DNA of 39,241 nt from a virus (Duplodnaviria > Heunggongvirae > Uroviricota > Caudoviricetes). Position numbers and translations under genes: made by a program. The notes under the pieces were generated by a model. That model saw only the letters and a program-made list of their open reading frames with translations. It searched no databases and was not told where the DNA came from. Below, in pieces: positions 1,395 through 26,574 of the stretch. The stretch lies in the IMG/VR virus record IMGVR_UViG_3300015262_000003, positions 1 to 39,241 of that record, one strand, 5' to 3'. Numbering within the stretch: the stretch's first letter is position 1; the number at the start of each line of letters is the position of its first letter.

Positions 1395-1405
1395 AGCAAC
1401 TTAAA

Positions 1406-1670
1406 GGAAGACTTTCTTCCTTTCTCTATTTAAGAGCATACACTTCGTGGATGTATCGCATAAAGTCTCTCTCCTACTGAGTGCGGGTGAATCGAAGTGG
1501 TGCTACTAAAGATTATTGTGAGTGAACATGCCCTTCTGCAATCTTTAGTATCTATTCAAGAACATTTACCCGACAAGGAAATGTAGCAGAACACGCTTAA
1601 TCAAGACGCTGATTATTCTATTAGCCGTTCAGGCACTGAAAGAAGATTGACGAATCTTTAAAGTCTTCCA
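1406..1670 (+). ncRNA. Putative ~265-nt structured non-coding RNA, family unrecognised
   Basis: A perfect 10-bp terminal stem (GGAAGACTTT 1406-1415 with AAAGTCTTCC 1660-1669) encloses six hairpins. The element ends in CCA at 1670, has no ORF of 60 aa or more, and lies between a promoter and the tRNAs. Confidence 0.65.
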
Positions 1671-1698
1671 TTGGTGTAAATGGGAGCGAGAATTCAAA

Positions 1699-2109: not shown

Positions 2110-3453
2110 ATGAGTAAAGATGAACTAATTGAGGCGTATTCACTAATTGGCGTTAGAGGTATGCTTGCTGAAGGGTTATTTGATAACTTGACACTAGCTT
2201 TAGATAATGTAAATAATACTGCTGACTTCTTCAAACCTTTTAAACCTTTGAGTCGTGAATTTGCTGTCTTCGGTGATAGTCGAACTGCTCAATGTCATAC
2301 AATTGCAGCAACAGCCTTCTCCACTGAAAACTATGGTTATGCCTTTTGGGCTGCTCAAGTTTCCGGTGGCTTTTGTCCAACTACTAATAACTTCGGTGTT
2401 GGTGGTGATACTACAGCAATGATGTTAGCTCGTATTTCTGCTGTAGTTGCATGTCCAGCTGATATTGTATTGTTCATGGGTGGGACGAACGACCGTACTG
2501 GTGGAATGACTGTTGCTGATACCAAACGAAACATTATCTCGATTGTACGTCGCTTGCAGAAAGCAGGTAAGATTGTAATCGTCGGTAATGATACTCCGCG
2601 ATTTGGTAGTAAAGCATTAACAGCTCCACAACAACTTGACCATGAATCTATTCGTGATTGGGTAACTAATGAATTGTCCAAGATCACTCCTGTCGCTGAC
2701 ACTTATTCACTGATCAATCAGAGTGACTTGTGGGACGACCTTCATATAAACGTCAAAGGTGCATATAAGGTTGGTGCTCTAGGTTTTGGTCCTGTATTAG
2801 CTAAATACATTCGACTTGGTGTTGATCTTCCAACAGAATCAACAGACCTTTGGAGTGTTAACAATACAACTGGTAGCCTTACAGCAAATCCGCTGATGAC
2901 AGGTAATGTAACCCAAAGTACCGGGTCAGTCAATCCTGTCGCTGGTAGTGTGGTGGCAACAGGGTTTAAAGGTGCTGGTAGTGCGTTCACAGGAGTGACA
3001 ACACAGTGGTCTAAAGAAGCTGCCTTGTTTGGTGAGTCTCAAGTTATTGCATTTGCAGGAACAGCAACTACAGCTGCTGCTTATTTGGCTGTATCGCCAA
3101 CAGCGACATTCCCACTTGCTAACTTGTCAGCTGGTAATGTTATTAGTTTGATGTGTGGGTTTGATCTAATTGGCGACGGTGTTGGTATCCTTGGTGTAAC
3201 AGCTGAATTAATGGTAACTAAACCAGTAGCCTCAGTATCAACAACCATTTACTACCGTGATGGTGATAAATATGTAGATCCTCACTCGATGCCAGCTGGT
3301 GCTGTTTCAGGTGCGCTGGACACTCAACGTTATACTGTTGATGGTACAGAAACTGCAATTGTTGCACGAATTAGTATTTATTTGGCACAGAATGTTCCAC
3401 TTAATTCTTCGGTTAAGATTCGTCAGTTTGCAGTTCGCAAACACACAGCTTAA
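2110..3453 (+). CDS. SGNH/GDSL-family esterase with an N-terminal anchor-like module and a beta-rich C-terminal domain, probably virion-associated
   Basis: SGNH blocks are present: FGDSRT (I), GVGGDTT (II), GGTND (III) and DDLH (V). The first ~27 aa are similar to the N-terminus of 5813..6097. Confidence 0.8.
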   Translation: MSKDELIEAYSLIGVRGMLAEGLFDNLTLALDNVNNTADFFKPFKPLSREFAVFGDSRTAQCHTIAATAFSTENYGYAFWAAQVSGGFCPTTNNFGVGGDTTAMMLARISAVVACPADIVLFMGGTNDRTGGMTVADTKRNIISIVRRLQKAGKIVIVGNDTPRFGSKALTAPQQLDHESIRDWVTNELSKITPVADTYSLINQSDLWDDLHINVKGAYKVGALGFGPVLAKYIRLGVDLPTESTDLWSVNNTTGSLTANPLMTGNVTQSTGSVNPVAGSVVATGFKGAGSAFTGVTTQWSKEAALFGESQVIAFAGTATTAAAYLAVSPTATFPLANLSAGNVISLMCGFDLIGDGVGILGVTAELMVTKPVASVSTTIYYRDGDKYVDPHSMPAGAVSGALDTQRYTVDGTETAIVARISIYLAQNVPLNSSVKIRQFAVRKHTA

Positions 3454-3480
3454 AAAGAAATGATGTAGTAGTACCCTGAA

Positions 3481-3543
3481 GGCAGCACATATGTTGCCAT
3501 AATAAGGAGGTGGTCCTATATCTCTAGGCCGTTTATCGAGGCG
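3481..3543 (+). other. Intergenic structured element containing a 14-nt complement of the 16S rRNA 3' end, with no downstream start codon
   Basis: TAAGGAGGTGGTCC at 3503-3516. It is flanked by the hairpins GGCAGCA-CATA-TGTTGCC (3481-3498) and GG(T)CCTA-TATCTC-TAGGCC (3512-3530). Confidence 0.5.
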
Positions 3544-12142: not shown

Positions 12143-13240
12143 ATGACTTTGATTATCGACAAGAATATTGACCGCCTGAGCCAAGGTAAGTTTGTAGAGC
12201 TTACTGACATTCTGGTAGAAATCCCGCGTAACGTAAGTGTTATCGATGCACTGAATCTGTTTGATGATGTTTACCTGACCCAAAAGAAATTCGAAATTCA
12301 ACGTGTTCAGTACAGCAACCATCTGATCAAGGATAAGAATTGGGATGAGAAAGCTGACACCATCGTTGGTCGTCCAGTTCGTGGTTTCATCCAAGGTAAG
12401 ATTCCACACTTCCCAATGATCGACGCTATCAAGCCATCGGACATTGACGGTATCGCTTCGGTTAGTTCGATCCAAGAAGCTGCTGGTCTGGAAACTGTAA
12501 TGGATGTTCGTATCGAGAAGCTGTCCACCATCACCAACGCTTATGACCTGACTGAAGACGTTGCTAAAATGCAGCTGTTGACCAAAGGTACAGTATATGC
12601 ACCAGCTGGTACTCTGGCCACATCGTATGGCGACACCATCGACTTCTACCAAGAAATGGGTGTAACTCGTCAGACTATCAACCTTGAACTGTCCGGTGCT
12701 AACGATCCACGTATCAGTGTTTCGAATCTGGTTCGTAAGATGCGTGAAGCTCTGCGTAACAGTTCTAGCAATGGTAACTACAAGTCGCTGGTAGTTCTGT
12801 GCGGTACTGATTACTTCGACGCTGTTTACACCAACCCGTTCGTAACTGACACTGTTAAGCAGTTCAACCAAGACCTGTCGAAACTGTTGCTGCAAACTCC
12901 AGATACCGCACAAGGTTACGATGCTAACTTCCGTAGCGTTAACGTTTGGGGTGTAGTGTTCATCGATGCTGGTACTGGTGGTTATGATGGTCCAGATGGT
13001 GTGTTTGTTCCGTGGATTGCTGCTGATAAAGCGATTGCTCTGCCAACTGGTGTTCGTGGTATGTTCAAGACTCTGTACGCTCCAGCTAACACTTTCAGCA
13101 CCATCAACAAGCGTTCAGCCGGTCGTTACTACTTCGAACGTCTGAACGAAGAAGATGACCTGATCCAAATGAAAGCTGAACAGAACTTCATGAATGCTCT
13201 GATCTACCCAGCTGCTGTATTCGATCTCACCAAGTCCTAA
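12143..13240 (+). CDS. Major capsid protein (lambda gpE-like family)
   Basis: 365 aa with an AAGGA RBS before ATG 12143. Contains IPHFPMIDAIKPSDI, the TKG..YAP and DFYQEMGV region, and YAPANT...N. Followed by a terminator. Confidence 0.9.
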   Translation: MTLIIDKNIDRLSQGKFVELTDILVEIPRNVSVIDALNLFDDVYLTQKKFEIQRVQYSNHLIKDKNWDEKADTIVGRPVRGFIQGKIPHFPMIDAIKPSDIDGIASVSSIQEAAGLETVMDVRIEKLSTITNAYDLTEDVAKMQLLTKGTVYAPAGTLATSYGDTIDFYQEMGVTRQTINLELSGANDPRISVSNLVRKMREALRNSSSNGNYKSLVVLCGTDYFDAVYTNPFVTDTVKQFNQDLSKLLLQTPDTAQGYDANFRSVNVWGVVFIDAGTGGYDGPDGVFVPWIAADKAIALPTGVRGMFKTLYAPANTFSTINKRSAGRYYFERLNEEDDLIQMKAEQNFMNALIYPAAVFDLTKS

Positions 13241-25900: not shown

Positions 25901-26574
25901 GTTGGACAAGTACAGCTTCAATCGTAGAGGAAAAGACAGTACGTACTTCTGAAAACTATGCTATGGCACAAACCATAATTAAGCTGACAGCAGATGTGGA
26001 CACTAACACAGCTACAGTGGTTGAGGTTAAACAAACTCAAGCGACAGACCGTGAAGCAAATGCTTTAGCAGTTCAAGCACTCAATGTGAAAGCTGATGCT
26101 AACACTGCTGCTGTACAAACTACATCTCAAGCAGTTGCAACTCTGGATGGCAAAGTGAGTGCTTCTTGGTCGGTTAAGCTTCAGGTGAATGGCCAAGGTC
26201 AATATGTAGCAGCTGGTATCGGGTTAGGTATTGATAATGGACCAGCGGGCTTGCAAAGTACATTCTTGGTTCAGGCTGATAAGTTTGCTGTAATCAACAA
26301 CATTGATTCTACCTTGTCAGTTCCTTTTGTAATTCAAGGCAACCAAGCATTTATTCGATCGGCATTTATTCAAGATGCTTCGATCACCACAGCTAAAATT
26401 GGTGGTGCTCTGCAATCTGATGATTGGATTAATAGCACTCAAGGTTGGTACTTACCAAAGACTGGTGCTTGGCAAATGAACGGTAGTGCAGGAGGTGGTA
26501 AGATGGTAATTAACAACACATTTATCAGGTTTTACCATCCAAATGGTAATCTTGGTATCGACTTGAGTCTTTAA
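22966..26574 (+). CDS. Tip attachment/central tail fibre protein (lambda gpJ-like)
   Basis: 1202 aa. GSKGG..KAHTPVE N-terminus, WTDNPVW, FnIII-like segments and a DUF1983-like C-terminus (QYVAAGIGLG...FLVQADKFA). Confidence 0.95.
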   Translation: MELILEGSKGGEDKAHTPVETPNNLLSVAYAKVLLAVAEGELAGTPTGRDIFLNGTPLLDSTGAPNFGGVTWEWRPGSVNQSYIQGMPDVSNEVSVGVELKDTTPWVREITKESLSAARVTLNWPALQQQQANGDTVGVTIDYAIDLSTDGGAYQLYQQYQVSGKTNTAYERTHRVNLPPATTGWTMRVRRITPNSTSSLVQDTMNIKSFAEVVDAKQRYPNTALLFVQFDSRLFGGGSIPKISVKTKGRSVRVPANYDPITRVYSGVWDGVFKWAWTDNPVWIFFDIVTQNRFGLGSRVTVNQVDKWELYEVAQYCDVLVDDGTGAGTKEPRHTCNIYIQSQEDAWTVLRDICSIFNGMTYWDGNKFIARADKQEPLDNIPLFGRTNVIGDFDYQTTDERTIFTSALVSYDEPSDHYGTQVEAVWEKSQILRWGGDRQTTMAAVGCTSRGEAQRKGKYTLITNMFNRSVNFKTGLQGLDPKVRPGAIIGVADPLIAGKEFTGRLIAATNRVITLDRVTEAKPGDVMFITRKDGSQEGRTVQAAAGKVITVTTNYSEIALPNSVWYLEADDLKSQLFKITKLKVDGATCMIDAVEYNDSKFAAIDSGARLEPRPISKVPPQAQKAPTPVIISSSSYIEQMQAVTTMTISWPKTENAVLYEGQWRVGQGDWVTLGVTGAQQFNVKGIYTGQYLARVRAINALDVKSAWTLSEATDLNGKAGSPPALSTFTTRKLVFGIGLDWTFPNGAEDTARTEIMYSVTTSFADAIKLGDYAYPQNSHEMHGLAAGVTFFFWARIIDRTGNIGPWTPLSTAHGLMGQSSSDQAEYELYFKQMIGASALYAELNDRIDLIDGNGTGSVNDRINDAVTDLEGQIANITDALVYDPALPYLDGDVVRQGHKLYQAIQDVPVSTPPPNVVYWKDVGTILEEANALASQVAVNTTNIETIDGKVTATASQISGLTAATRDDGGEGALNDALKGWTSTASIVEEKTVRTSENYAMAQTIIKLTADVDTNTATVVEVKQTQATDREANALAVQALNVKADANTAAVQTTSQAVATLDGKVSASWSVKLQVNGQGQYVAAGIGLGIDNGPAGLQSTFLVQADKFAVINNIDSTLSVPFVIQGNQAFIRSAFIQDASITTAKIGGALQSDDWINSTQGWYLPKTGAWQMNGSAGGGKMVINNTFIRFYHPNGNLGIDLSL

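Follow-up and report, generated by a model that had tools for sequence, protein, structure and literature searches.

To our knowledge, small stable RNAs encoded in the transfer RNA (tRNA) clusters of phages have been on record since the 1970s (species 1 and 2 of T4), and none of them has an assigned function. The function of these T4 RNAs (rnaC and rnaD) is still unknown (PMC4933390). In phage PAK_P3 an abundant RNA of about 120-130 nt, termed sRNA2 or ncRNA2, lies between two phage tRNA genes and is made by processing, without a start site of its own (PMC4933390, PMC10914365), and the transcriptomes of phiKZ, YuA and other Pseudomonas phages contain many short RNAs derived from 5' untranslated regions. 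The DNAVirus_X catalogue holds 8,495 covariation-supported motifs of 29-151 nt drawn from the intergenic regions of IMG/VR, and the text that presents it describes no motif heading tRNA operons (PMC10690425). Here we analyze a stretch of 39,241 nucleotides from a virus of the Caudoviricetes (IMGVR_UViG_3300015262_000003, positions 1 to 39,241; hereafter the window), which makes up the initial 39 kb of a phage genome of 103,241 bp that has direct terminal repeats of 123 bp and a G+C content of 40%. Near its start, comparison with the sequences of related phages points with near certainty to a previously uncatalogued family of structured RNAs, about 130-160 nt long, that heads the tRNA operon and that we call the leader RNA. 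It may already be present among the DNAVirus_X motifs, without a name or a function attached to it.

A conserved RNA structure at the head of the tRNA operon

The conserved core of the leader RNA, represented by the covariance model R1, occupies positions 1430-1558; like all RNA features of the window described below, it lies on the plus strand. It is made up of a near-invariant single-stranded 5' motif, AAGAGCA in the alignment consensus (1432-1438), followed by three helices, P1, P2 and P3, and a short tail. P1 pairs 1442-1447 with 1493-1498 and is extended in the window by 1436-1439/1500-1503, while P2 pairs 1456-1466 with 1476-1486; the two are separated by a purine-rich internal loop (1448-1455 and 1487-1492) that displays an invariant GA on both strands. 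The loop of P2 contains the motif CUCUCCU (1469-1475), complementary to the Shine-Dalgarno-like AGGAGAG, and this motif is identical in all 14 distinct sequences of the family even though the surrounding stems have changed. P3 (1504-1513/1541-1550) bears a large apical loop of 27 nt (1514-1540), in which a conserved U.AGUG is accompanied by a C/U-rich run of the form GCCCUUC in group A, the subgroup to which the window belongs, and GGCCUUCC in group B.

RNAalifold, run on 11 sequences, recovered the three helices, with compensatory double changes at 24 of their 26 pairs, and R1 was built from that alignment. Covariation statistics were computed on the R1 alignment of the 14 distinct sequences, with controls in which the pairing partners were slid by 1-3 columns and with 500 column shuffles. 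Standard pairing is found in 94.2% of the cells, as against 39-45% in the slid controls, and the covariation score is 0.84, as against 0.12-0.15; the observed value was reached by none of the 500 shuffles for four of the five measures and by a single one for the fifth. Changes on both sides are seen in 5 of the 6 pairs of P1, 9 of 10 in P2 and all 10 in P3, with 98.8% of the cells pairing in P1 and 92.9% in P2. Taken on this comparative evidence, the core is under strong purifying selection on its structure.

Searches with R1 recovered the window element over the full length of the model (1430-1558; 120.9 bits, E 5e-23), and each genome yielded exactly one full-length match, invariably on the promoter strand, so that the window element is the sole copy in its 103-kb genome. 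The orientation is also apparent from the helices themselves, as only the promoter strand can accommodate the many G-U pairs, one of which, a U-G at the base of P2, is invariant. In the relatives, as in the window, the core lies directly downstream of a consensus sigma70 promoter, with the first tRNA following it on the same strand. A conserved peptide can be excluded as the object of selection, because there are indels of 1 and 4 nt and because the only candidate ATG is lost in two members.

Relatives, their recovery and an associated small protein

The relatives were reached mainly through an open reading frame (ORF) of 62 amino acids (aa) just upstream of the leader (1100-1288), which was used as the homology query. 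Its close homologues share 74-90% identity and the distant ones, recovered with a profile, 28-40%, and they derive from contigs of many unrelated samples. DNA was obtained for twelve homologues of the 62-aa protein, and three more genomes came, without recourse to this ORF, from an IMG/VR scan with the conserved motif of the apical loop. The leader RNA is common to at least 15 related phages, on contigs of up to about 105 kb, and at least five IMG/VR genomes carry it. Other routes yielded little: blastn in distant mode with 1300-2110 matched only tRNAs among GenBank phages; pattern scans of IMG/VR with the 5' hairpin (see below), GGATGTATC..GGGTGAATC, the P3 loop of group A and a 24-nt hairpin beyond the core gave nothing or chance matches; a search anchored on the downstream SGNH hydrolase (2110-3453) returned two distant loci and one fragment from IMG/VR and, in a metagenome scan, short contigs only; and of the 4 matches in a pattern scan of GTDB genomes, all at chance level, R1 confirmed none.

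The nearest cultured relatives of the window phage are phages of Pseudomonas syringae, with phiK7A1 sharing 83% amino-acid identity in the SGNH hydrolase, and Otagovirus phages such as PE09 are more distant cultured relatives. A tRNA cluster lies upstream of this hydrolase in the window genome and in all these cultured phages, and in these relatives it comprises 19-20 tRNAs. An R1 search of phiK7A1 and PE09 gave no match; the leader of PE09 does contain a C/U-rich hairpin, but one with no R1 match and no stable fold.

The 62-aa protein belongs to a family (P0001-P0018) of 54-63 aa whose N-terminal half is acidic and whose C-terminal motif, of the form F.FEYA.ES.T ... KRR, is invariant. A protein with the conserved motif FKFEYAxESxT...YKRR is encoded 100-170 nt upstream of the RNA in every RNA-bearing locus examined, including the three genomes found independently, and is absent from phiK7A1 and PE09. 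As most members of the RNA family came to light via that ORF, we treat the co-occurrence as a lead rather than as evidence. Searches of Pfam and PHROGs with the protein gave sub-threshold matches only, and AlphaFold models it with low confidence (predicted local distance difference test score, pLDDT, of 64) as a helical hairpin of two helices. Between this gene and the promoter, a mini-ORF at 1285-1363 appears by eye to have been split by a frameshift into 16 and 13 codons, with its counterpart in the relative L004 appearing, likewise by eye, as one ORF of about 30 codons with the same ...EEEWI end.

Promoter and 5' end of the transcript

A promoter scan identified a sigma70-type promoter, TTGACT-17-TACAAT with an extended -10 TG, at 1366-1394 (TTGACT-17-TGaTACAAT; 10 of 12 consensus positions), where the earlier note on this DNA had placed a consensus promoter. 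Transcription of the leader would start near 1401. A promoter of the form TTGAC[AT], 17 nt, TA[TC][AT]AT is present at the homologous site in all 13 loci examined, with a perfect 12 of 12 in L004, and in all members the conserved element begins about 8-40 nt past the predicted transcription start, beside this promoter.

In group A alone, the transcript would open with a 5'-terminal hairpin, AAAGGAAGA-CTT-TCTTCCTTT (1403-1423), corresponding to +3 to +23 of its own transcript. All group A relatives carry it, with one G-C to A-U exchange, and it appears in the minimum free energy (MFE) fold of 1401-1690; about 7-8 local 5' pairs are predicted in every relative. A terminator consensus scan flags this hairpin (9 pairs, only 3 of them G-C, with the tail CTCTATTTAA); it may terminate transcripts or, as is more probable, serve as a 5'-end stabilizer. 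Stem-loops at the 5' end are known to stabilize RNAs (RNase E/RppH).

The apparent tRNA-like closure

The earlier note, made from the sequence of this one genome, had proposed an unclassified structured RNA of about 265 nt that is closed like a tRNA by a 7-bp acceptor stem, a discriminator base and CCA, with a T-arm-like hairpin beside them, and had suggested for it a part as decoy or scaffold, which the present comparison neither favors nor disfavors. Its outline stands, in that a promoter-driven, non-coding, structured RNA does head the tRNA cluster: no ORF of 60 aa or more is present (the largest in 1289-1698 has 29 aa), and Rfam 15 returned no match at the gathering score or at E<=10, save a chance-level SNORD26 match inside the element (14.5 bits, with 44 needed). 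At the gathering score the same collection, with GOLLD, ROOL, 6S RNA, riboswitches and ribozymes included, gave tRNA matches only in the window and six relatives. The complementary sequences it singled out are likewise present, GGAAGACTTT at 1406-1415 being the exact complement of AAAGTCTTCC at 1660-1669, where A1670 completes the CCA of 1668-1670; so are its hairpins at 1642-1659 and at the five interior positions S1 (1436-1447/1493-1503), S2 (1504-1514/1540-1550), S3 (1562-1584), S4 (1598-1615) and S5 (1628-1640). The comparison with related phages that the note had suggested separates these stems from one another: S1, with its inner hairpin, and S2 covary across the 14 related sequences, far beyond chance expectation, S3 is a conserved hairpin but a separate element outside the core, and S4 and S5 are not conserved.

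The tRNA-like molecule itself dissolves in this comparison. The 3' region that supplies its size of about 265 nt, the 3' arm of its acceptor stem, its T-arm-like hairpin and its CCA end is without a counterpart in any relative; the 5' arm of the acceptor-like stem sits within the local hairpin AAAGGAAG ... CTTCCTTT that is conserved in group A; and in six relatives no complement between the 5' and 3' parts exceeds 6-8 bp, those present lying at unrelated places. For these reasons the 265-nt molecule is not a conserved entity, and, as judged from the relatives' sequences, the long-range acceptor-like stem and the CCA end are fortuitous in this one genome. About a dozen perfect inverted repeats of at least 10 bp within 320 nt occur in the 39-kb window, mostly in coding DNA, and the closing stem is therefore within chance expectation. 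The folding energy of the 290-nt stretch is unremarkable, with z = -1.97 and a GC-adjusted MFE that is only in the top 6.7% of all 272-nt segments genome-wide. The most stable 272-nt fold of the genome after G+C correction lies outside the window, at 64,500-64,900 on the minus strand (-102.8 kcal/mol, 4.2 standard deviations below expectation), and is far more extreme than the leader region.

It is accordingly very improbable, in our estimate, that 1406-1670 gives rise to a stable, CCA-ended RNA of about 265 nt matured by tRNA enzymes. Such a molecule would draw on a 10-bp complement that dominates the predicted ensemble (pair probabilities of about 1.0) if the RNA ends at 1672, on the fact that the phage's own tRNA genes encode their CCA, and on the precedent of T4 rnaC, a tRNA-like stable RNA from a phage tRNA cluster. 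The long-range closure is, however, predicted only for an RNA with its end near 1672: upon extension to 1690 the MFE structure switches to the local 1403-1423 hairpin plus a 3' hairpin, and of the two competing stems, 1403-1423 and 1406-1415/1660-1669, only the local one is conserved. Furthermore, the loop GACG of the 1642-1659 hairpin is no T-loop; ARAGORN, in default and relaxed modes, called no genes in 1396-1700, and its search for transfer-messenger RNA (tmRNA) was silent, as were the Rfam tmRNA models; the Rfam tRNA and tRNA-Sec models gave no match in 1401-1690 at E<=10; the tRNA gene found at this place in relatives would split the proposed molecule; and the cut expected of RNase P is at 1698/1699 rather than at 1670.

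Sequence beyond the core and the tRNA cluster

Past about 1556 the relatives diverge from the window. In L025-L028 a tRNA-Met gene is inserted at the equivalent of 1556/1561, between the core and a separate 24-nt hairpin, AACATTTACC-CGACAA-GGAAATGT (1561-1584), and in L022 an odd tRNA-like insert occupies the same junction (about 3393-3510), which has the T-arm GGTGG-TTCAACT-CCACC and a CCA end and is not called by ARAGORN. The 24-nt hairpin, which is not part of the core, is 100% identical in L025-L028. In the loci with these inserts it is followed by spacers of 60-200 nt, unrelated to one another, and then by tRNA-Asn. A 15-mer at the center of the hairpin is present as a single copy in each genome of group A and in L004, L047 and L057, with the counterparts at 3879-3903 in L004, 4918-4932 in L047 and 7887-7901 in L057; the L004 copy shows a compensatory T-A to A-T change. 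It is placed after the leader RNA or the first tRNA in group A and past the last detected tRNA in L004 and L047. Being conserved far better than its surroundings, it may represent a processing signal or a protein-binding site.

The remainder, 1586-1698, is a genome-specific tail that contains S4, S5, the 1642-1659 hairpin, the 3' arm (1660-1669) and the CCA (1668-1670). It shows no similarity to any relative locus (best E 0.14) or to GenBank phages, and ARAGORN found no tRNA in it at a relaxed threshold. Judging from this lack of conservation, the tail behaves like a neutral spacer, and a non-functional spacer would be its default reading. To extend that reading to the region as a whole, as a spacer or as the decayed remnant of a tRNA or protein gene, is in our view extremely improbable. 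The array has clearly been remodelled, since the relatives have 13-20 tRNAs and the window genome only three together with one odd tRNA-like element, and the tail is spacer-like; but the strong purifying selection on the structure of the core refutes a spacer for 1430-1558, and both tblastx of 1290-1700 against the ORFs and loci of relatives and searches with tRNA models were negative, which speaks against a remnant.

Downstream of the tail, ARAGORN and the Rfam tRNA model identified tRNA-Asn (1699-1776), tRNA-Thr (1785-1860) and tRNA-Gln (1999-2077), and this cluster (1699-2077) is likely to share a transcript with the leader RNA. Between tRNA-Thr and tRNA-Gln lies the odd tRNA-like element (about 1867-1992, some 126 nt), which possesses an acceptor stem, a T-arm and CCA and is called by neither ARAGORN nor the Rfam tRNA model. 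It is conserved, being 69% identical over 157 nt to an unannotated stretch of PE09 (26203-26359), where the acceptor stem has undergone compensatory changes, and does not align with the similarly placed PAK_P3 sRNA2. In the related phage L057 a group I intron (12784-13079; Rfam RF00028, 54 bits) is found about 6 kb downstream of the leader RNA. Among public sequencing samples the whole stretch is present in only one, a rhizosphere metagenome that is probably its source, and no RNA dataset is listed among the holders.

Probable release of the leader RNA from the tRNA precursor

In L004, L050, L056, L057, L025 and L027 a tRNA begins 0-3 nt past the end of R1 or overlaps its last bases, such that the abutting tRNAs start about 8-10 nt after P3. 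Because of this arrangement, RNase P should release the leader in these genomes. Sequences that look tRNA-like by eye, with acceptor ends, T-arms and CCA, were missed by ARAGORN in L047 (about 2936-3010), L051 (about 2955-3030) and L052 (about 3008-3090), and the tally of genomes with a tRNA abutting the RNA is hence probably too low. We infer that the leader is co-transcribed with the tRNAs and that the RNase P cut at the 5' end of the next tRNA frees it; by analogy with established tRNA processing, the released RNA would span the transcript from its start to just past P3, and would persist as a small stable RNA whose production keeps pace with that of the tRNAs. In the window genome the core is not abutted by any tRNA; there the RNase P cut would fall at 1698/1699 and the primary leader would measure about 298 nt (1401-1698), with about 140 nt of additional, non-conserved tail left on it if RNase E does not remove them.

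Possible functions of the leader RNA

We tentatively favor, at somewhat below an even chance, a stable trans-acting RNA that works through its pyrimidine-rich loops. Our guess is that the two exposed loops act in trans, most likely by pairing with purine-rich sites of the Shine-Dalgarno type, AGGAGAG, and thereby modulating translation, or else by holding a protein. The loops have remained invariant while the stems around them turned over; CUCUCCU is the exact complement of AGGAGAG ribosome-binding sites before 12 ORFs of the window genome, and loop matches of 9-10 nt occur at several of its ribosome-binding sites; group A has gained a 5'-terminal hairpin of an RNA-stabilizing kind; and stable RNAs in phage tRNA regions have precedents in T4 rnaC/rnaD and PAK_P3 sRNA2. 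As to their distribution, 11 of the 12 ORFs with the AGGAGAG(A) motif are on the minus strand, and most lie beyond 40 kb. A number of points weigh against this function. Ribosome-binding sites of the AGGAGAG type are equally frequent in phiK7A1 and PE09, both of which lack the RNA, and loop matches of at least 9 nt are not enriched beyond what likeness to the Shine-Dalgarno sequence would give, so that target pairing is unproven. The invariant loops could instead be engaged in tertiary contacts, for example between the AGAG of the 5' motif and the CUCU of the P2 loop, a pairing that is beyond covariation testing because both sides are invariant. The RNA lacks its own terminator and is always promoter-proximal, which fits a role in cis equally well, and the folding energy of the core as a single sequence is unremarkable (z of -1.2 and +0.2). 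A related proposal, that the RNA mimics the anti-Shine-Dalgarno sequence, with CUCUCCU and the CCUUC-rich P3 loop occluding AGGAGAG sites on phage or host mRNAs and with RNase P releasing the leader in step with the phage tRNAs, strikes us as unlikely; if true, it would be an RNA-only counterpart of the reprogramming of translation by T4 RegA/RegB during infection.

The main rival is action in cis during transcription, a possibility that we hold to be doubtful rather than remote. The leader would then be, for example, a factor-independent or Nus-type processive antiterminator that shields the long untranslated tRNA array from Rho, or a platform for the folding and processing of the precursor, and its release by RNase P would be disposal only. 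A parallel is offered by rrn leaders (boxA) and HK022 put RNAs, which are promoter-proximal elements that render RNA polymerase resistant to termination. The place of the element beside a conserved promoter in all members is compatible with this, as is the untranslated array of 0.4 to more than 2 kb that it always precedes without a terminator of its own; moreover, the two relatives without the RNA open the same operon with a translated ORF. Nonetheless, the RNA strand contains no boxA-like sequence and the element shows no homology to HK022; the 5' hairpin aside, no plus-strand intrinsic terminators were found within the L004 cluster or between the window RNA and the tRNAs; and the stabilizing 5' hairpin of group A would be needless in a purely co-transcriptional role. 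Quite unlikely, in our judgment, is a ligand- or protein-sensing (riboswitch-like) or catalytic RNA in which the invariant loops and the GA-rich internal loop form a tertiary pocket. Invariant single-stranded nucleotides beside covarying stems and a conserved, asymmetric, purine-rich internal loop are what such an RNA might display, an AGAG/CUCU pseudoknot is possible, to which a G inserted after AAGAG in two sequences could add one pair, and the small protein encoded immediately upstream co-occurs with it; yet P3 is followed by no expression platform, neither a terminator nor a helix sequestering a Shine-Dalgarno sequence, Rfam has no match, and the division of the family into two clades swamped the search for covariation at a pseudoknot. 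Should the leader RNA control the transcription or translation of the tRNA operon, it would add a new regulatory layer to large lytic phages of soil- and plant-associated bacteria.

Comparison with known systems

With the leader RNA family, the old question of the small stable RNAs in phage tRNA clusters gains a defined subject. The fold of this family is proven by covariation, its two exposed loops are invariant and open to mutation, its place after a consensus promoter and before the first tRNA is fixed, and its natural variants differ in whether they possess the 5' hairpin and whether a tRNA abuts them. The case also illustrates how one sequence on its own can offer an attractive tRNA-like closure that is accidental; only the comparison of relatives made the real unit visible. 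As in tRNA and tmRNA, the ends of the window RNA, and of the window RNA alone, can form a 7-10-bp helix followed by N-CCA beside a hairpin; unlike them, it has no T-loop consensus, ARAGORN and Rfam are silent, and the closure is missing in all relatives. GOLLD and ROOL are also structured non-coding RNAs that often adjoin phage tRNA genes, and they are roughly three to six times larger than the leader RNA, which consists of only three simple helices and, in the window and six relatives alike, does not match their Rfam models.

The PAK_P3 small RNAs show no homology to the leader RNA and differ from it in having, in the case of the processed RNA, a T-loop-like 11-mer that the leader family lacks; they also rest on transcripts and not on covariation, whereas the converse holds for the leader RNA. 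With HK022 put and the boxA elements of rrn and lambda nut it shares, in position and architecture only, the plan of a promoter-proximal multi-hairpin element that heads a long transcript, but the whole HK022 genome has no R1 match at E<=1 and the leader RNA strand no boxA consensus. A parallel in setting is offered by T4 rnaC (139 nt) and rnaD (119 nt), non-coding RNAs of about 120-140 nt that lie in the tRNA cluster, on the tRNA strand, abutting tRNAs. Excision from the same tRNA precursor is expected for these T4 RNAs, and the position of the leader RNA, which tRNAs abut in several genomes, suggests the same for it by analogy. R1 with its filters off nevertheless found no match at rnaC/rnaD (L080 1909-2172, minus strand), the best chance match elsewhere reaching 9 bits; the T4 RNAs lie at the distal end of their cluster, whereas the window family lies at the promoter; and rnaC folds with a tRNA-like T-arm (GGUUCGAAUCC) and a terminal closure, neither of which is present in the conserved core. 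By analogy, then, the leader RNA would resemble the small stable RNAs of T4 in its position and likely biogenesis, and the promoter-proximal leaders in its architecture.

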